This document shows, in pieces, positions 1 to 58,486 of a DNA stretch of 64,000 nucleotides (positions are counted from its first letter, which is position 1; the number at the start of each line of letters is the position of its first letter). The stretch comes from a virus. Taxonomy: Duplodnaviria; Caudoviricetes. The stretch covers positions 1 to 64,000 of IMG/VR virus record IMGVR_UViG_2882253857_000001; one strand, written 5' to 3'. The translations under genes and the position numbers were made by a program. The notes beneath the pieces are model-generated. The model did no database searches and was not told where the DNA came from. It saw only the letters and a list, made by a program, of their open reading frames with translations.

Positions 1-222
1 TTATTTTATAGCCCTTATTCTTCCTGCTTTAATGAAATTATCTATAGTTTGATAGATATCTATACATTTTCCCTCTTTCCAAACTTCCATTATTTTATTA
101 ACTCCTTCATTTTTTAAGTATCTTGTAAATGCGTCATTAAATACTGTCGTAACAAGTAAATTTTTCCTATGCCTCTCTTCCAATACAACAAACGTTTCAA
201 AATCAATATGCAATGTTAACAA
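1..222 (-). CDS. Hypothetical protein
   Basis: 73-aa ORF overlapping the end of the LexA-DBD gene. Confidence 0.5.
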   Translation of the reverse strand: MLTLHIDFETFVVLEERHRKNLLVTTVFNDAFTRYLKNEGVNKIMEVWKEGKCIDIYQTIDNFIKAGRIRAIK

Positions 223-445
223 CTCCTTTTATATTGCCAATTAATTGGAGCGCCCTCGGCTTGCTCGCTTCTCTCCTTATGTATCCTTTTTGTTCCAAAT
301 TGCTTAAATATCCATGAATAGTTGATGTAGATTTTACTTCCATTAAAACAGCCAGTTCTCTTACGGTAGGAGGATATCCATGTTCTTGAAGATATTTATT
401 GATTACCGACAACGCTTCCTTTTCTCTTCTGGTAATTGTATTCAT
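203..445 (-). CDS. Stand-alone LexA N-terminal DNA-binding domain protein
   Basis: GYPPTVREL...KSTSTIHGYL..LEQKGYIRR...PRAL; no peptidase domain; GGAGG RBS. Confidence 0.85.
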   Translation of the reverse strand: MNTITRREKEALSVINKYLQEHGYPPTVRELAVLMEVKSTSTIHGYLSNLEQKGYIRREASKPRALQLIGNIKGVVNIAY

Positions 446-3076: not shown

Positions 3077-3253
3077 CACAAAACCCCAGAGCAAACGCCC
3101 CAGGGTTTTGTACAAATTAAAAGTATGAACCTTTCAATCCACATCCGCACTAAGCGGATGACACACCTAAAATATAACATATACTATAAAACAAGTAAAT
3201 CCCACCAACCAATTAAGGTCAGTGGGATTTTAAAATGTAGGTAGTGTTTATAA

Positions 3254-3595
3254 TTACAAACTTATTCCTAGAGATGTTGCAAGAGCCGCCCCGGCCGATG
3301 TAACTTTTATTGCTTCGGAAAGCAAACCGAAGAATTTCTTCGCTCGGTCAAGTTTATTTTCCTGGACGCATCCTTTAATTGTTGCCAGATCCGATAAATT
3401 ATCATTCCGCTCTTGGGAATCAGTTAATTTTTCAATTTCAGCCTTTAAATCTAAAAACAGTTGTTCAAACTTACTATCCAGAGGGACTTGATATGTTTGA
3501 GTATTGGCATCACCTTGAAAGTTGCTGTTTCCATTGAAAGTCGCTCCATCAAAACTTATATCTTTCATTTTTCTTGAGTAATCATTATTCTGCAC
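3254..3595 (-). CDS. Hypothetical protein (Asn/Gly-rich N-terminus, helical C-terminus with hydrophobic tail); also reachable by -1 frameshift
   Basis: GTG with GGAGGT RBS; frame open upstream through the A9G run at 3709-3718. Confidence 0.75.
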   Translation of the reverse strand: MQNNDYSRKMKDISFDGATFNGNSNFQGDANTQTYQVPLDSKFEQLFLDLKAEIEKLTDSQERNDNLSDLATIKGCVQENKLDRAKKFFGLLSEAIKVTSAGAALATSLGISL

Positions 3596-3681
3596 ATTTA
3601 TACCTCCGCTAATAATTAGTTCATTAATTGTTATCCCTGCCTTATAAAGATCTGATAAGAGCGTACCTTGTGTATTGCCAT

Positions 3682-4047
3682 TTAAAAGTGGGATACTTGT
3701 CTTACTTTCTTTTTTTTTACATAATCTTTGTACTGAGGTAAAAAATCAAAAGAAACCCAAACCCTATCAGGGTCTGGTCTATATTCTATTCCACATACAC
3801 TGCATCTACGAAGTTCACTTATAATTTCAACCGGTGAATCGACTAAAAAGTCACTATCCCCTTCTGGGCATTCCACCTCATAATAAACCTTAAGTTTTCT
3901 ATTAACTTGAGACAACAAGTATTGTGTTACAATTTTCAGGTCGGCAATACCACTCAGGGCACATATATAGTGAGGAGAAAAATGCTTTTTATCATTAAAG
4001 GCCATTTCTTCTAAAATATCATCAAGTCGAAATTCATATTCTAACAT
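3682..4047 (-). CDS. Putative winged-helix plus zinc-ribbon protein
   Basis: YEVECPEG...CSVCG; ends VKKKK on an A9G run. Confidence 0.75.
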   Translation of the reverse strand: MLEYEFRLDDILEEMAFNDKKHFSPHYICALSGIADLKIVTQYLLSQVNRKLKVYYEVECPEGDSDFLVDSPVEIISELRRCSVCGIEYRPDPDRVWVSFDFLPQYKDYVKKKKVRQVSHF

Positions 4048-4067: not shown

Positions 4068-5021
4068 TTATATATTCTCTACAGCCTCGATTAATTCCTT
4101 CTCAGTTGCAGACTCTCCAAACTTTATTTTTAATATCACATTAAAAACGAAACTTATAACTTCTTCTCCAACATTAGATCGAAACCACAATCCTTCGTCA
4201 GTAATTACATAAGAGATCTCATCCTCAAAACCAAAAGAATATTTATGTTTGAACAATAATGTTTTTTTCTTAACTGGTTGGTTGTTAAATTCCCTCTTAT
4301 AATCCTCTTCAGATTCAAGGTCTTCTACTTGAGGTTTTGCAGTCACTTCTTTTGTTGAGTACACTCCTTCAGTCATCTTGTGTTTTGCAGATCTCAACTT
4401 AGCATTCAATTCTCGCGCCAATTGTTTTGCCTGTTCTTCAGTAAGCTTGGTTAACTTTTCCCAAGTAACCTCTTGATCAATTCCCATAATACTGAGAATA
4501 GTCCTTTTGAATGTTTCATTTTGCGACTGGCTAGCTCTGATTTCGACACAGAAAGGTTCGAAGTGAATAACTACATAATCCAATATTTGTTGTCTCCGCA
4601 CCACAATTTCGAAGTTTTCTAAATAGCGCCTTGAAGAGCCGAGATACGAAAATGCCAGTACTAACCTATTGCCCACTTCGTGGGCCTTTATTATTTTAGG
4701 TTCATCGCTTAAAGTCGGTCTAAGGCCTCTACCAAAAATATCATTAGTATATTTTTCAATTAAAAATCCTTTAAAATATTCTTTGTTCCTCCATTCTGGA
4801 GATATTTCGGAAGTAACCATATGTATGTTTACAGCTGTTGCCCCAGCATACTGAAATTGATCTGCTATATCTTGTCCAACAGAAGGCTTTTTATCTGCTA
4901 TTATATTTGCCATGTCTTCTATTACAGATAATTTTGTATCTTTATCAAGTTTTTCATTTTTCACCACTTGTTTTAATACGCCTGAAGGAACCTGCATAGC
5001 TAAAATATCTCTTAGTCGCAT
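4068..5021 (-). CDS. Hypothetical protein, first gene of an accessory (defence-like) operon
   Basis: 317-aa AT-rich ORF with its own promoter downstream of the lysis terminator. Confidence 0.75.
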   Translation of the reverse strand: MRLRDILAMQVPSGVLKQVVKNEKLDKDTKLSVIEDMANIIADKKPSVGQDIADQFQYAGATAVNIHMVTSEISPEWRNKEYFKGFLIEKYTNDIFGRGLRPTLSDEPKIIKAHEVGNRLVLAFSYLGSSRRYLENFEIVVRRQQILDYVVIHFEPFCVEIRASQSQNETFKRTILSIMGIDQEVTWEKLTKLTEEQAKQLARELNAKLRSAKHKMTEGVYSTKEVTAKPQVEDLESEEDYKREFNNQPVKKKTLLFKHKYSFGFEDEISYVITDEGLWFRSNVGEEVISFVFNVILKIKFGESATEKELIEAVENI

Positions 5022-5069: not shown

Positions 5070-5098
5070 AGTATAGTGGAATTGGAACATTGTGTAAA
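5070..5098 (-). promoter_or_regulatory. SigA promoter TTTACA-17-TATACT
   Basis: -35 at 5093-5098 and -10 at 5070-5075 on minus. Confidence 0.7.
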
Positions 5099-5219: not shown

Positions 5220-5444
5220 TTACAAGTTATACCCCTGACCGCCGGGCTTGGTTGGATTACTGATAATCCCGAGGGTTGCGAGCAATCCAAGCAGCACATC
5301 CGTTACAGCCAAGATATCATTCTTCATTACTTCGGTTAAGTCAAATAATCCTGTCAGGTGTCCAAGAAGCTGTAAAAGCAATAACACCTGAGATACGATA
5401 CTGACCCACAGTGCATAGTTCCGCCATCTTTTCTTACTCATCAT
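5220..5444 (-). CDS. Holin
   Basis: Two TM segments; RWRNYALWVS...LGIISNPT; next to endolysin. Confidence 0.85.
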   Translation of the reverse strand: MMSKKRWRNYALWVSIVSQVLLLLQLLGHLTGLFDLTEVMKNDILAVTDVLLGLLATLGIISNPTKPGGQGYNL

Positions 5445-6361
5445 TGTAACTCCCCTCCCTTCTCGATTACTTCAAGTTTCCTTTCCAACTCGCTGATCCT
5501 CGCCGTATTGCCGGCGATCAGTTTGAGAAAGTTGGTACGCAGCCGGTTGATAACGATGGCTGTCTGTTCCCTAGTAATCGGTGCTCCTGGTCTTGTCCCA
5601 TCAAAGTAACCATTCGCCTTGGCCTCCGCCCAATCTTTAGCAGCCCACTCGCTTACCTGGTTTATATCCCGTTCCGTCACCTTAGGTTCCTCCTTCTTAG
5701 GTCCGTATTTTCTCATCAGTTCCGCCTTAGAACCATTAAACTCGTTGAGGTCAACATTACCATTAATGCCGTTTACCTTCCTTGTCCCGTTTGCTCTTAC
5801 GCCACCCTTATCATCTCCGCTATATTGGAAGAATTCCCATTGCTTCCAAGCGACTACATCCCATGGAGCCGATGTAGCGTAACGCGCTACCCATAGTGGA
5901 TACTTACCTAGATCTTTTTCAAACTTTTCAGCAAAGGAGTTTCCAGTATAAATTCCCGGAGTCACGTTCAGTCTTGCCTCTACCCGATTTAAGAACGCTC
6001 GTGCAACTACGTTAATTTGAGCTGCTGTAATGCCCTTAAACTCTTCGTAATCTAGCATTGGTGGTAGATCAAATACTTTAGTACCGCCTGCTTCTTCAAT
6101 TGCATCGCAAAACAGATCTGCAGCAGCAACAGCTAGTGCAGCAGTAGTTACTTTGGCGTCAAGGTAATGATATGCGCCAATCAATAGCCCGACAGACTTT
6201 GCTCCTTTTACTTGCTCTAAAAACATCGGAGCAATAGAATTTTGTGTAGCTTTGATAAAAACAAAATCAATCCTGTCTTTCGCAACTTTCGCCCAATTAA
6301 TGTTTCCGTTATGATGGGACACATCAATTCCTTGTGCGTTACTTGATTTACGTTGTTGCAT
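5441..6361 (-). CDS. GH25 muramidase endolysin with SLH-like C-terminus
   Basis: GIDVSHHNG, FVFIKAT, GAYHY, LDYE, VDLN; WA...G.FDGTRP..PITREQ.A. Confidence 0.95.
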   Translation of the reverse strand: MQQRKSSNAQGIDVSHHNGNINWAKVAKDRIDFVFIKATQNSIAPMFLEQVKGAKSVGLLIGAYHYLDAKVTTAALAVAAADLFCDAIEEAGGTKVFDLPPMLDYEEFKGITAAQINVVARAFLNRVEARLNVTPGIYTGNSFAEKFEKDLGKYPLWVARYATSAPWDVVAWKQWEFFQYSGDDKGGVRANGTRKVNGINGNVDLNEFNGSKAELMRKYGPKKEEPKVTERDINQVSEWAAKDWAEAKANGYFDGTRPGAPITREQTAIVINRLRTNFLKLIAGNTARISELERKLEVIEKGGELQ

Positions 6362-6364
6362 TTC

Positions 6365-6658
6365 TTACCCTCTCCCTTCTATATTCTCTAATCGATCCAA
6401 ACGCTTGTGAGCTTGTTTGGATGACTCTTCAACCCTAGTAACACGTTCAGATACCGTTTCTAAACGTTGCCCTTGCATTCGAACATCAACTCTAATATCA
6501 TCAACGCCACGTTTGATATACTCCACATCAGCACGCTGGACAGCTTCAGCTGTGACCTCTGAAGCAATGTCTTTTTTCACTGTTCGCGCCTTCCCTGTCC
6601 ACCCAAGAATGAAGGTGCTGACTCCGGTAATGACAGCAATTACTAATCCCCAATCCAT
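6365..6658 (-). CDS. Holin-like lysis protein (N-terminal TM plus coiled coil)
   Basis: ERVTRVEESSKQAHKRLD; upstream of endolysin. Confidence 0.75.
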   Translation of the reverse strand: MDWGLVIAVITGVSTFILGWTGKARTVKKDIASEVTAEAVQRADVEYIKRGVDDIRVDVRMQGQRLETVSERVTRVEESSKQAHKRLDRLENIEGRG

Positions 6659-7939: not shown

Positions 7940-10138
7940 TCATGATGGACGATTAGTTGTGAAGTAAAGACCACTAGGAGGCCAGTTTTGATTTTCTGTC
8001 CTTCCGTGATTGTGTGTAGGCAAAGCGAAATTGTGTCCATGACTTTCGTAGTCATTTCTCAAAGAATTAATTTGTGATTGTAGATAATTTAATTGTGATG
8101 ATAAACCAGATATATTTGAAATAGACAAATCAAGCCCACTTACCGAATACCTAAAATTAACATTCCCTTGAAATGTTGTTTCACCTTGTACATATATCGG
8201 ATTACTTGTGCTGTTTGAACCCAAAAACAGATTGTTTGAGAATAGAGTTAGCCCACTACTTCGATAGGCATTTATTTCACCTGCATATCCTCCATTAGAA
8301 CCCCAAAAGGATATAGAAGCAACATCATCATTTGAACTAGTAGTTATAGCAATTCGGTTATTTCCGTTACTATCGAAAGTCCCAAGTCCGGTTGAATTGA
8401 TCTGAATCATCCGTCCAGAAGCTGCTGTTCTCAGAGTAGAACCTGTTATTAAAGAAGCTGATATATTGCCTCTGAAATCTCCGCTTTGCGCTACCATGTG
8501 TCCTGATGGATCTACCGTAAACGTTCCTCCACCAACATTAATTGAGGAGCCTATAATAGCCCCTCCTTGAAAGTTAGAGCTATTAATCTGAGCTGAATTA
8601 GCTGTAAGCTTATTAGCTACTAAGTTACCTTTCATATCAACTCTAAATGGTGCGCTGTTGAAATTAGCATGACCAGCAGCAATGCCGTTTGTATTGATTT
8701 GGGTAACGTCGTTTCCGCTGCCTATCAACATAGAAACGAAATCACCAAACTGGCCTGTTACCGTTTCGGCTAATACGCCTTTAGCAGTGATTGCAGCCCT
8801 AACCGTTTTCCATCCATCAGTTGAAATCCCAATTCCTTTGGATGTAAGCCGAACCTGTTCTAATGGATTTGTTTTCTCTTGGGCTAAAATACCGCCCTCT
8901 GGAGGATATATAAGTTCCGTTTTACTATTGTTAATATCAGCTATGACTTGTTTTGCGGCAGCTTCGAAAACCTCTGTTCTTATCTTGCCGTTAGAGAACA
9001 TATTATCGACCAGGTCTTTACTCTTTTGGAGATCCGCTATGATATCCTCGTAATCATGTGGCCTGACGTTTGAAATGGTTGGTTGGCTATGTTTGTCTTT
9101 ACTATAAGGATATTCAATCAATTCAGTTATTCGAGCCTTAAGCTTGTTCATATCCATTTTAGGATCGATACAGGTTACTACATCGCCTAGATTCGGCTTA
9201 GGCTCTGTTTTATCGATCTTAAAAAGGTCTGCTGAAGATATAGTTGCTTCAAGCTCTGGCTGCTCTTGCTCACGTAACTTATTGCGCATGGCTTCCAGCA
9301 GGTCTTCTGGATCTTCGATATCCTGATTGATAAGTTCTCCATCATAAAAAGGAACGCTATCACTCGCCCAATATGAAGCGTAAGGAGAGATCAGATAGTT
9401 AACCTCCAGCTTACCATTCACTATGGCTCCTGGGACTTGTGAGAGCAGCGTACGTTCTTCTTGGGTCAATTTAGATGCGTCCATTCCTATGAATGTACGA
9501 CCATCCTTCATCTGCCCGAATAAGCGAGTAACAAGCTTTTCACCAATATCCTTGAACGAGCTACTAACGATGTTTTTCTTGAGCCGGTACTGTAATCCGC
9601 TGTCGGTTCCGATCTTCTTCTTGAGGTGGATAACGAAATTATCCGGTTCCACTTCACATTCATACATCTTGATTACATCGTTAAGAGCCTGTAGGCAGTC
9701 TCCGCGCCCCCAATCCTTAACGTCATGCAAGGCGAATGTATCATGAATCTGAAACTTGAAACGCCCACCTGTAGCCGCTGTAATAGAGTCTGTAAGCGTT
9801 GTAATATGAACACCATACGCCTCATCGATATAACTGGAATAAGGGAATTTAAAGTCATTAAGTTTGAACATAACATGATTGCAATAGATGTTCGCTGTAA
9901 GTTTTCTTCCTTCCCGTGATCTACTTCGGGACTGAATGACATAAAACTGGCCACGCTCATCTCGAACGTGGCCTTTGATTTTAATCTTCTCCTGATAATC
10001 TTCGCTTGTCATCGGGACCATGAATGTTAATTCATAGTCGCTGTTAATACGTCTTCGGCGTTCTATATCATATGCATCTATTAATGTGCCAGTGCGCCTC
10101 ATGTTTTTATCAAATACTTGCATAGTTTTATTAGGCAA
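7940..10138 (-). CDS. Tail spike/Tal (prophage endopeptidase tail family)
   Basis: RRRINSDYELTF, EPDNF, KKKIG.D, TRL.G; ISTDGWKT...AIT. Confidence 0.85.
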   Translation of the reverse strand: MPNKTMQVFDKNMRRTGTLIDAYDIERRRRINSDYELTFMVPMTSEDYQEKIKIKGHVRDERGQFYVIQSRSRSREGRKLTANIYCNHVMFKLNDFKFPYSSYIDEAYGVHITTLTDSITAATGGRFKFQIHDTFALHDVKDWGRGDCLQALNDVIKMYECEVEPDNFVIHLKKKIGTDSGLQYRLKKNIVSSSFKDIGEKLVTRLFGQMKDGRTFIGMDASKLTQEERTLLSQVPGAIVNGKLEVNYLISPYASYWASDSVPFYDGELINQDIEDPEDLLEAMRNKLREQEQPELEATISSADLFKIDKTEPKPNLGDVVTCIDPKMDMNKLKARITELIEYPYSKDKHSQPTISNVRPHDYEDIIADLQKSKDLVDNMFSNGKIRTEVFEAAAKQVIADINNSKTELIYPPEGGILAQEKTNPLEQVRLTSKGIGISTDGWKTVRAAITAKGVLAETVTGQFGDFVSMLIGSGNDVTQINTNGIAAGHANFNSAPFRVDMKGNLVANKLTANSAQINSSNFQGGAIIGSSINVGGGTFTVDPSGHMVAQSGDFRGNISASLITGSTLRTAASGRMIQINSTGLGTFDSNGNNRIAITTSSNDDVASISFWGSNGGYAGEINAYRSSGLTLFSNNLFLGSNSTSNPIYVQGETTFQGNVNFRYSVSGLDLSISNISGLSSQLNYLQSQINSLRNDYESHGHNFALPTHNHGRTENQNWPPSGLYFTTNRPS

Positions 10139-55898: not shown

Positions 55899-57200
55899 AT
55901 GGCAAAAGGCAGCATTGAGAAACGAGGAGTAAATACCTGGAGGCTAACGGTTGATCTTGGATTTAATCATGACGGTACTAGAAATCGTCCAAGAAAACGG
56001 GTCGAGGTGGATGATCCAGAAATTCTGAGGTCGAAGAGAGCTCTAGATGAGTATCTCGATGGTGAATTATTTAAGTTTAAACAGGAAGTTGAGTCAGGCG
56101 AGTACATCAAGCCAGAAAAAATGACCTTTGAAGCGTTTGTCTTGGATGAATGGATGGAAAAGTACGCTAACGACCCAAATAACCTCTCCCCCACTACACT
56201 CGCTACTTATGAAGGGATAATTGAATCTCGATTAATTCCGCAATTTGGTCATAAGCAAATCGATAAGATTAGCACAATGAGTCTTGTTACTTTTATGAAA
56301 AGCTTAGAAAAACCAGGGGCAAGAAGACCACCTGTCACTAAAAAACCACTTACTGAAAAGCAAAAGAAAAAACTTATGGAGCCATTAGAACCTGGTACAA
56401 TTGTTTATATCTATAGAGTGCTTAAAAACATATTCAAACAAGCTTTTGATTGGAGAGTAATCAAAGTCAACCCAATGGATGGTGTTAAAAAACCATCCGA
56501 GAGAAATTCTAAGGAAAAAATAATAGCTCAACGTAAAAATCCACAATATTACGATGAGGATGAAGCGCAACAAGTTGTTGATGCTCTCTATAAAGAATCT
56601 CGAAAGTGGAGACTTCTTATTCTTGGCTCAATGATCGGTGGTTTCAGAAGAGGTGAATTATTAGGATTAGAATGGCCGCTAGTTTTTTTCGAGCGTAACT
56701 TCATCTCTGTGGAAAATAACATTCCTTATACTAAAAAAGGGAAAGCCATCGAGAAAGGTCCTAAATCATCATCATCTTATCGAGATACTGATATGCCGGA
56801 GTGGTATATGGAAGAGTTAGAGATTTATAAAAAGGAGTGGGAAGAAGAAAAAGAATTCTTAGACGACAAATGGGAAGGTGAAGATCGACAATTCGTATTT
56901 CATAATGGTAAAGGAAAGCCATACTACTATCAGCATCCATCAAAATGGTGGAAACGATTTTGTAAGCGACATGGAATTAGATACATTAAATTTCATGGCT
57001 TGCGTCATAGCTCAGGAACTCTTCTTTTGGAAGATGAGGATGAAACTAATTTTGACTCAATTTTGAAAGTCATTCAAGAGCGGTTAGGACACGCCAGATT
57101 ATCAACTACTACCGATATCTATGTTCACGTTACCAAAAAAGTAATAAGACGTACAACCGGGAAATTTGATAAATTCGCGCGTGGTAGTAAAAAAAAATAA
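55899..57200 (+). CDS. int: Tyrosine integrase
   Basis: G.RRGELLGL.W, FHGLRH, RLGH, Y.H. Confidence 0.97.
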   Translation: MAKGSIEKRGVNTWRLTVDLGFNHDGTRNRPRKRVEVDDPEILRSKRALDEYLDGELFKFKQEVESGEYIKPEKMTFEAFVLDEWMEKYANDPNNLSPTTLATYEGIIESRLIPQFGHKQIDKISTMSLVTFMKSLEKPGARRPPVTKKPLTEKQKKKLMEPLEPGTIVYIYRVLKNIFKQAFDWRVIKVNPMDGVKKPSERNSKEKIIAQRKNPQYYDEDEAQQVVDALYKESRKWRLLILGSMIGGFRRGELLGLEWPLVFFERNFISVENNIPYTKKGKAIEKGPKSSSSYRDTDMPEWYMEELEIYKKEWEEEKEFLDDKWEGEDRQFVFHNGKGKPYYYQHPSKWWKRFCKRHGIRYIKFHGLRHSSGTLLLEDEDETNFDSILKVIQERLGHARLSTTTDIYVHVTKKVIRRTTGKFDKFARGSKKK

Positions 57201-57383
57201 AAACAATGTGATTATGAATCATTTTACCAACTATCGATACGTTATTTTTAATGGGGACAAAACGGGGACGGAATACAGTGTTTTATATAGAATTCATTCA
57301 ATATGAGAACAACATGCGAACACCTGAAAGCCTTGATATTACTGGTTATTCAGAAATTGTTCCATTTAAAATACGTTACCTAT

Positions 57384-57430
57384 CCACCTTGACAGGGTGG
57401 GGGTCAGTGGTTCGAGCCCACTACAGATCA
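57384..57430 (+). tRNA. 3' fragment of tRNA-Val(GAC), att site
   Basis: CCACC-TTGACAG-GGTGG, AGTGG-TTCGAGC-CCACT, ACAGATCA; no D arm or 5' acceptor strand; GGGGAC direct repeats at 57253-57268. Confidence 0.9.
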
Positions 57431-57565
57431 TTATGCCTTATGGCACAAGGGTTTCCAGCGATTCATCCACTTATCAATAATAGGTGGTCGATAACTGACA
57501 CGTTTATATCACAAAAAACCACTATCTTTAAGGACACAATCTCCTTGAAGGTGGTGGTTTTTTCT

Positions 57566-58486
57566 ATGCTATTCAAATTCGCGTTGACTGAGTTTAAAGC
57601 AGACCGAGAATATCGAAATGTGAGTGATCGTACTCTAACTGCGTACATGAATCAGTTGAATGAATTTCATCAGTATTGTGTTAATCATGACGTGGTGAAT
57701 CTGGAGGATTGTACAGCATCATTCATCAAACAGTATTTACTCCATTGTAAGGAGAAAGGCAACAACCCAACAACGGTAAATACAAAGTTACACATCTTAA
57801 AAATCTTCTTCAATTACTTTGAAACTGAAATGGAAGTATTTACTCCCAAGACTAATCCCACTAAACGGATAATCTTTGCCAAAGAAGAAATCAAAATCGA
57901 GGTATTTTCAGACGCACATATTAAACAGATGCTTAGATATTACCAATCCCTTAAATATCGGGATAAATCGCTTTACGCTTATCGAGATTACTTTATGATT
58001 ATCTTTTTACTTGGTTCTGCTTGTCGTATCGGTGAAACTGCAAATCTTAGGTGGAAAGATGTTGATCTCGTTAATCAAATCATTACCGTCAACGGAAAGA
58101 AACGAATAGCTAGTAGTATTCCTATGTCGGACAAGTTAAAAGCAGAGTTTTTAGAGTATCGACTGTTTATTGATCAACACTTCCCTACAATGCCCGAAAT
58201 GGTGTTTACAAATCGAGACGGAAAACCATTAACCGATAATGCAATTAAGTGCATTTTCAAGCATCTAAAGGCAATCATGAACTTTAAAGATGTTCGGCTT
58301 AGTGGGCATACGTTTCGCCACACAGCAGCGCATAGAATGTTGATCGCAGGTGCAGATGTTGGCACAATACAGAAGATGCTACGCCATTCTAACGTTAGCA
58401 TGACGCTAAGATATTTCTCTTTATGGGGAACCGCATTGGCAGAGCAAAACGAAAAGTTTAATGCATTAAATTCATTTGACCTATGA
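57566..58486 (+). CDS. Tyrosine recombinase/integrase
   Basis: SAM-like N-terminus, CRIGE, HTFRH, MLRH, RY; start reassigned to ATG 57566. Confidence 0.92.
   Translation: MLFKFALTEFKADREYRNVSDRTLTAYMNQLNEFHQYCVNHDVVNLEDCTASFIKQYLLHCKEKGNNPTTVNTKLHILKIFFNYFETEMEVFTPKTNPTKRIIFAKEEIKIEVFSDAHIKQMLRYYQSLKYRDKSLYAYRDYFMIIFLLGSACRIGETANLRWKDVDLVNQIITVNGKKRIASSIPMSDKLKAEFLEYRLFIDQHFPTMPEMVFTNRDGKPLTDNAIKCIFKHLKAIMNFKDVRLSGHTFRHTAAHRMLIAGADVGTIQKMLRHSNVSMTLRYFSLWGTALAEQNEKFNALNSFDL

Follow-up and report, generated by a model that had tools for sequence, protein, structure and literature searches.

A conserved run of nine or ten A's in a two-domain prophage gene is a probable programmed recoding site

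Gene B, on the minus strand at 4047..3254 of the window (the whole 64,000-nt stretch of DNA analysed here), appears to be a single gene of two domains in which a run of nine A's acts as a programmed recoding site. On the basis of comparisons with its relatives we consider it probable that recoding at this run, most likely by transcriptional slippage, yields a short and a fused isoform. Standard decoding would end after 121 aa and leave an N-only protein, in which a short tail follows a zinc-ribbon-like domain for sensing or docking. One extra A, added by RNA polymerase slipping over the nine A:T pairs, would bring both domains into frame and give a 264-aa fusion of M1–K113 and 151 residues of the -1 frame; a less probable route to the same fusion would be a ribosome slipping -1 on A_AAA_AAG. 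An internal Shine–Dalgarno (SD) sequence and GTG would probably also give a 113-aa C-only protein. Because the run is kept in every relative examined, the cell most likely makes both the short and the fused protein, and the run would set the ratio of the domain-only isoform to the domain–effector fusion. Gene B and its partner, gene A, would together make up a prophage accessory cassette of two genes, one that probably acts against phages or in abortive infection.

The junction and its surroundings

Features of the cassette, with their coordinates in the window, are given below.

5070..5098, minus strand: promoter-like site 5' of gene A, TTTACA-17-TATACT, 10/12; a consensus match only
4068..5021, minus strand: gene A, 317 aa, of no known family; partner directly 5' of gene B
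3682..4047, minus strand: zero frame of gene B, with the N-domain (C60, C82 and C85 conserved); 121-aa N-only product with an 8-residue tail after K113
3710..3718, minus strand: A9 run (T9 on the plus strand), proposed as the site of slippage; invariant in the DNA alignment
3596..3709, minus strand: linker, in the -1 frame only, with no ATG, GTG or TTG in frame; conserved motif (G)TLLSDLYKAGI
3254..3709, minus strand: -1-frame part of gene B with the C-domain, 151 codons and stop; with M1–K113, 264 aa
3603..3607, minus strand: internal SD-like GGAGG, 7 nt before the GTG at 3595-3593; equivalent in 15/22 loci
3254..3595, minus strand: possible C-only product of 113 aa, from the internal GTG
3197..3230, minus strand: terminator-like hairpin and T tract past the gene B stop

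Gene order on the minus strand is gene A (5021..4068), a gap of 20 nt, the 121-aa ORF (4047..3682) and the GTG ORF (3595..3254); it is the last of these, the 113-aa C-only form, that is present in the public protein collection. The A9 (3718-3710) lies near the end of the 121-aa ORF and is followed by G3709. Codons at the junction read GTA (3720-3718), AAA (3717-3715), AAA (3714-3712) and AAG (3711-3709), which places the heptamer A_AAA_AAG (3715-3709) in phase with the ORF. Beyond AAG the zero frame continues for eight codons to a TAA at 3684-3682. The -1 frame is free of stops from 3745 to 3257, with its stop codon at 3256-3254; downstream of the A9 it reads ESKTSIPLLNGNTQGTLLSDLYKAGITINELIISGGIN and then enters the GTG (3595-3593) of ORF 3254..3595, with GGAGG (3607-3603) 7 nt 5' of that GTG. 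The A9, the in-phase heptamer, the open -1 frame and the GTG with its own SD had all been reported in the initial annotation, and every one of these elements was confirmed codon by codon. A tryptic peptide from the linker, TSIPLLNGNTQGTLLSDLYK, is encoded in the -1 frame; since that frame holds no start codon upstream of the peptide, TSIPLLNGNTQGTLLSDLYK would be obtainable solely via recoding.

Taken by itself the A9 is within chance expectation: the window holds two A/T runs of at least nine, against 2.07 expected from second-order Markov simulations, and it is the conservation of the run that goes beyond chance. The other such run (57189-57197, plus strand) encodes the C-terminal ...GSKKK just 5' of the stop of an integrase-like 433-aa ORF (55899..57200), next to which lies a second tyrosine-recombinase-like ORF (57251..58486).

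The window is 100% identical to scaffold 1 of Paenibacillus aceti L14 (L001). Judged from the window's ORFs, the cassette sits just downstream of a prophage lysis module comprising an endolysin-like ORF (6361..5441, 306 aa) and holin-like small ORFs, with a tail fibre at 10138..7940. The lysis module (5441-6658, minus strand), directly 5' of the cassette, includes small membrane-protein-like ORFs of 97 and 74 aa; at locus L003 a peptidase-type endolysin-like ORF likewise lies directly 5' of gene A. About 2.8 kb downstream of the cassette an 80-aa ORF (203-445, minus strand) resembles the N-terminal domain of LexA, and on the Aneurinibacillus plasmid pAT1 an annotated lexA lies directly 3' of a fused gene B (L046:3524-4147). 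The proximity of lexA may be a coincidence, or may reflect a link to the SOS response or DNA damage.

Conservation of the run, the open frame and the linker

Used as the query of a full HMMER search, the 121-aa protein yielded 37 matches, one of which (P0033) is apparently spurious. Short relatives span approximately 117–153 aa and end soon after '...FDF..Y..VKKK'; the remaining relatives are long forms. Three of these, P0005 (264 aa), P0028 (259 aa) and P0034 (282 aa), carry the window's -1-frame C-domain in frame, and six more carry a PD-(D/E)xK-like module (a label given by eye from an ECKNW motif). DNA loci were drawn from two named Paenibacillus species, 400 genomes of the family of genome G001 (8 with matches), 401 genomes of its class (18 with matches), six metagenome and seven viral contig loci, and one Aneurinibacillus plasmid (L046). 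Loci were scanned with a closer alignment (A4), the broad alignment (A3) being too divergent. After removal of duplicates (L022 and L023 of L015, L028 of L021, L029 of L024, L026 of L025 and L045 of L042) there were 24 distinct split loci, the window included.

A junction run is present in all 24, as A9 in 16 and as A10 in 8. The shifted frame of 22 loci stays open over 139–219 aa and encodes the C-domain, with -1 needed in 20 and +1 in two (L039 and L042). The other two are L018, which is cut by a contig end, and L027, in which the C-part has been lost, so that 23 loci are evaluable. Three in-frame fusions with the C-domain (L032, L034 and L046) also keep A9, in the same phase as the window (GTA/ATA AAA AAA AAG); with one A more or fewer, each would reach a stop after 3–22 codons. 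Together, 27 of 27 relatives of the C-type (24 split and 3 fused) carry A9 or A10. Junction runs of at least nine are absent from forms with other output domains, namely the nuclease-like L013 and L033 and eight proteins of 488–642 aa.

The run is rare elsewhere in the related loci: in 152,068 nt of non-duplicate sequence, 25 of 26 runs of at least nine are the gene B junction. Lysine codons elsewhere in these genes are AAA in 69% of cases (287/414), and on this basis a conserved KKK is expected to give an unbroken run of at least nine in approximately 0.37–0.41 of loci. The chance of obtaining 27 of 27 is about 1e-11 with the relatedness of loci ignored, a figure that overstates significance because the loci share ancestry. 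When the DNA of 11 relatives is aligned, the run stands out as an invariant island, with divergence setting in directly 3'. As judged from codon usage and alignment, the run is conserved at the nucleotide level past the needs of the encoded residues.

The probable recoding signal extends across Bacilli and to a single record from Sporomusa ovata; its settings are prophages and a plasmid. Phage records gave no match, either by blastn with the locus or by tblastn with the N-part, and a single-sequence scan of viral contigs likewise gave none. When the C-part alone was compared with a set of 5.8 billion proteins, only the C-part itself shared short words with it. The viral contigs did not contain DNA for the in-frame proteins P0005, P0028 and P0034.

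If the fusion is made, then the linker, which belongs to the shifted frame only, should bear the marks of a translated sequence. Over the first 40 codons past the run the shifted frame contains no stops in 22 of 22 loci, compared to 1–9 stops in each of the other frames; the chance of 40 stop-free codons is about 0.05 per locus. Linker pN/pS is 0.22–0.62 in the five closest pairs (the C-core is similar in three of these) and 0.54–0.97 in four more distant pairs, where pS is near saturation. A motif, [ST]L.D[LI]...G, lies 12–30 codons past the run and aligns with a motif in the in-frame fusions. No ATG, GTG or TTG occurs 5' of this motif in the shifted frame of the window, L015, L020, L008, L007 or L011, and because there is no start codon 5' of it the linker would be translatable only within the fusion. 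N-domain, linker and C-domain occur in one chain in P0005, P0028, P0034, L032, L034 and L046. By these comparative measures the linker is coding and under purifying selection.

The C-domain may have a start of its own. An SD-like core lies 5–11 nt before an in-frame start, 28–60 codons past the run, in 15 of 22 loci. Within this zone 15 of 42 in-frame start codons have such a core, compared to 1 of 97 elsewhere; the internal SD overlaps conserved Gly-Gly codons. The remaining 7 of 22 loci lack an internal SD plus start. The combination in 15 loci means that the C-domain could be made without any fusion, and in the window it suggests a 113-aa C-only protein from the internal SD and the GTG at 3595.

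These data bear on the central claim of the initial annotation, namely that recoding fuses the zinc-ribbon ORF to the downstream frame. Its A run persists in the homologues (A9 or A10 in 24 of 24 split relatives), as does its open shifted frame (22 of 23 evaluable split relatives); with the coding signature of the linker and the in-frame fusions, comparison gives the claim strong support. The annotation had also counted three products from two genes. Three products are plausible, given an internal SD and start in 15 of 22 loci; the two genes are better described as one gene with two domains. The annotation further suggested that recoding might sense Lys-tRNA or translation stress during infection, a speculative role.

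What the run does

Run length is 9–10 in all C-type loci, and never below nine, whatever the frame. Passages of Atkins et al. 2016 (PMC5009743) describe efficient in vivo slippage at 9 A or T, and an RNA–DNA hybrid of 9–10 bp. A mixture of shift directions among orthologues is, in the parts of Antonov et al. 2013 (PMC3711429) that treat it, a criterion for transcriptional realignment; since orthologues of gene B mix -1 (20), +1 (2) and in-frame (3) arrangements, transcriptional realignment is favored. Slippage in Thermus dnaX mostly adds A's according to the relevant passage of PMC5009743, and the 20:2 bias toward loci needing one extra A fits that description. Homopolymer length, nucleotide conservation and mixed shift direction all agree, as far as sequence comparison goes, with what is expected of transcriptional slippage.

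A mutable homopolymer could instead act at the level of the DNA itself. The tract would then be a contingency switch, changed by slipped-strand mispairing, with A9 as the OFF state and rare A10 mutants heritably ON. A homopolymer of 9–10 is mutable, and all three frame states are found in the family. A single Priestia megaterium cluster mixes in-frame members with two kinds of split member: the 90% cluster of P0034 (P0090, P0095, P0096, P0098 and P0100) has the 282-aa in-frame form on many contigs together with split pairs of 119+149 aa and 126+149 aa. The gain or loss of one base, in the run or adjacent to it, would account for the tails of these pairs (from protein sequences only, with assembly error possible). 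Against such a switch, frame state is stable within clades. On a 27-row tree of the N-domain it changes three times (minimum two), compared to a mean of 4.8 in shuffled data, where a value as low was reached in 4 of 200 shuffles. The window's clade (12 rows, SH-aLRT 98) has the -1 state in 11 of 11 labelled rows over long branches. Ten split-type 90% clusters (18 members) are free of fused forms, and tails do not differ among the 9 members that were read. The tract is, moreover, confined to 9–10 whatever the frame, and it lies in an inter-domain linker, so that 'OFF' would leave the N-domain folded, its short tail region conserved, and the C-part able to start by itself. A word search for a longer relative of the window's N-part found none, which is weak evidence in the same direction. 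We regard the switch as unlikely: the tract is as mutable as any A9, but heritable switching does not look to be its main role.

Also unlikely as the main mechanism, in our estimation, is programmed -1 ribosomal frameshifting on A_AAA_AAG, with the fusion made from unedited mRNA. In its favor, the window has this heptamer in phase, and a -1 shift is what 20 of 22 split loci require. An in-phase X_XXY_YYZ heptamer is found in 20 of 20 -1 loci, being A_AAA_AAG in 9 and A_AAA_AAA or A_AAA_AAC in the others. However, six A's and a G would suffice for such a site, yet 27 of 27 loci keep 9–10 A's; the shift is +1 in two orthologues, and three others keep the run with no shift needed. Just 1 of 22 loci has an SD-like stimulator 5' of the run, and the 60 nt 3' of the run show no conserved structure across 22 loci (mean folding z -0.32, range -2.76 to 1.15); Rfam gave no credible family match. 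Of the properties of dnaX/IS3-type sites, then, the alignments contain the in-phase heptamer, and stimulators and a constant shift direction are missing. The initial annotation had named precisely this type of ribosomal signal; the family pattern (runs of 9–10, both directions plus in-frame forms, no SD or hairpin stimulator) points to transcriptional slippage instead. Ribosomal -1 slippage may contribute at the -1 loci.

A terminator-like hairpin within the N-ORF (3757-3777, minus strand) lies over the conserved PDPDRVW codons of the N-domain, with a T-rich stretch next to it. It was considered as a stimulator of slippage and rejected, being approximately 38 nt from the run and, by eye, not kept in L002 and L003.

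That there is no recoding at all is very unlikely. On this account N-only and C-only proteins (the latter from the internal SD and GTG 3595) are separate products, the run is no more than a KKK motif encoded in AT-rich DNA and the open linker is left over from an ancestral fusion. Databases and gene callers do annotate two genes, and the internal SD and start in 15 of 22 loci, with their concentration in the zone past the run (15/42 against 1/97), speak for such an arrangement. Against it, 7 of 22 loci are without them, codon usage does not predict an unbroken run in 27 of 27 loci, and the linker is open in 22 of 22 loci, has a conserved motif and bears the signature of purifying selection. 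The last alternative is a simple in-frame gene whose split is an artefact of sequencing or assembly, or else a recent mutation that inactivated it. Errors are common in homopolymers, and the assembly behind the window's record is at scaffold level. Yet the A9 and the -1 offset recur in independently assembled genomes of two other species of Paenibacillus and in 19 further split loci. The homologues, whose split members do not show the simple in-frame A10 gene that the initial annotation had allowed for, effectively refute this reading.

Domains, possible role and known systems

The gene A profile matches a same-strand ORF directly 5' of gene B in 20 of 24 split loci, and also the upstream ORF in L032 (fused) and L033 (nuclease-type). 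Relatives of gene A, from Paenibacillus, Aneurinibacillus, Brevibacillus, Cytobacillus and Bacillus, are all annotated as 'hypothetical'. Gene A has no match in Pfam, PADLOC, PHROG, NCBIfam or PDB; none of the three cassette ORFs was significantly matched in Pfam, NCBIfam or PDB sequences, and a search of PDB sequences with the profiles of gene A and the N-domain gave no match. Some copies of the cassette appear to be decaying, because gene A is broken in two metagenome loci and the C-part is lost in a third locus. In L017 gene A (1504-2451) is broken by an in-frame TAA and in L018 (1449-2463) it is frameshifted at a short T run, with the A9 of gene B retained in both. In L027 (2456-3700) the N-domain ORF and its A9 are intact and the C-domain is gone: the -1 frame closes after 34 codons, and some other gene, in a different frame, sits in place of the C-part.

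A zinc ribbon (CPxC...CxxC) has four metal-binding Cys in two knuckles. The N-domain conserves C60, C82 and C85; in the window's subgroup the first knuckle reads CPEG, with Gly in place of its second Cys, and other subgroups have CPxC. The N-part matches phrog_33512 weakly and falls below Pfam significance in the window. The N-domain profile matches the middle of the 488–642-aa Bacilli proteins (L035–L038, L040, L041, L043 and L044), falling on the zinc-ribbon region in those of 616–642 aa; the one of these eight that was scanned, L035, contains DUF5939 (PF19363) followed by Guanylate_cyc. DUF5939 forms the N-terminal region of Bacilli adenylate/guanylate cyclases. Because the profile matches such proteins, the N-domain would be a module that pairs with cyclase, PD-(D/E)xK-like or C-domain outputs, and the small N-domain may be a cyclase regulatory module that has become detached.

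The -1-frame part matches phrog_35861 from residue 18, that is, from 5' of the GTG. Its C-domain is modelled, with low confidence, as helical. A membrane anchor at its end was considered and rejected, the C-terminal 17 residues being just moderately hydrophobic (1.1–1.7). Zero-frame tails, for their part, often end in hydrophobic residues, such as ...LIAI, ...LLLI and ...LVLV (seen among L008, L009, L016 and L025), a tendency that is weak and variable (mean Kyte–Doolittle of the last four residues +1.0); a hydrophobic tail could in principle act as a C-terminal degradation signal.

PDC-M14 is a candidate defence system listed in PADLOC. Profiles of its protein B, PDC-M14B (C-terminal part), match the C-terminal 90–110 residues of the C-domain in L007, L031, L032 and P0034 (E 1e-11 to 1e-7); the match to the window's C-part is weak (E 0.014). 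In PADLOC the N-domain has no PDC-M14B match and 0 of 7 gene A sequences match any model. PDC-M14 membership, which takes matches to both A and B, does not extend to the cassette. The term PDC-M14 was not found in the literature searched. The GAPS4 defence system, in the part of its description available to us, consists of a PD-(D/E)xK subunit (GAPS4a) and a ring subunit (GAPS4b). An Atlas lead for gene A was GAPS4b_N on 23% of the members of one look-alike cluster; a Pfam match to GAPS4b_N was found in 0 of 32 gene A relatives, in a scanned set in which the presence of such a model is uncertain.

One sensor-type domain joined to varied outputs is typical of sensor–effector conflict systems. 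The cassette bears the hallmarks of a defence module: its varied outputs, its PDC-M14B-like C-module and its locations in a prophage, on viral contigs and on a plasmid are the reasons for proposing an anti-phage or abortive-infection role, in which the run would dose the fusion against the N-only isoform. A bolder proposal, to which we attach a low probability, is that the run is both stoichiometry and trigger device of an undescribed prophage abortive-infection system. A small, fixed fraction of fusion would sit amid an excess of sensor-only decoy and free C-module, and an infecting phage that alters RNA polymerase, nucleotide pools or elongation rate would raise slippage and with it the toxic fusion, the efficiency of recoding serving as the infection sensor.

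Recoding of the preferred kind would have consequences beyond this locus. Annotation pipelines would be splitting one gene into two 'hypothetical proteins'; the family, in which -1, +1 and in-frame arrangements can be compared, would offer a clean natural setting in which to ask how transcriptional slippage determines the ratio of isoforms; and immune-type modules may use recoding to dose a potentially toxic effector. To our knowledge few bacterial families besides IS elements, phage tail chaperones, dnaX and prfB have a recoding signal so broadly conserved. The literature searched describes neither the family nor any recoding within a defence system; the family might be listed in the cluster tables that supplement Antonov et al. 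2013.

The closest parallel is dnaX, with its tau and gamma products. As in gene B, a homopolymer of 9–10 stands between an N-terminal module and a C-terminal extension, and the isoforms share an N-terminus (in passages of PMC5009743 and PMC3711429). The same passages describe transcriptional slippage at a 9-nt homopolymer in Thermus thermophilus dnaX and 'two-ORF' dnaX genes with A10; orthologues there differ in having the long form in frame or shifted, and the run is the sole stimulator needed. Unlike dnaX, gene B belongs to an unrelated protein family with an unrelated biology, and it adds a probable, predicted internal-start product. The OrfA/OrfAB pairs of IS3 and IS630, made by -1 frameshifting or transcriptional realignment at A runs, are alike in giving an N-domain alone or fused to an effector part, and in being mobile; the OrfA N-domain is of DNA-binding type and its OrfAB partner is the catalytic or effector part. 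IS families mix +1 and -1 arrangements, as sections of PMC3711429 report. In contrast to IS elements, neither part of gene B resembles a transposase.

Homopolymer slippage in non-IS genes, with extended or truncated products, is also seen in mxiE, spa13, spa33 and mxiA of the Shigella type III secretion system, with efficiencies of tens of percent in the account excerpted from PMC5009743. These are genes of a Gram-negative virulence plasmid, and that account, in the passages concerned, describes no comparable family-wide conservation. Among defence-related families, PDC-M14 shares with protein B its C-terminal module, whereas the N-domain and gene A are unmatched. DUF5939 cyclases share the zinc-ribbon N-module with gene B; they differ in that the cyclase and nuclease-type forms have no run of at least nine at the junction.
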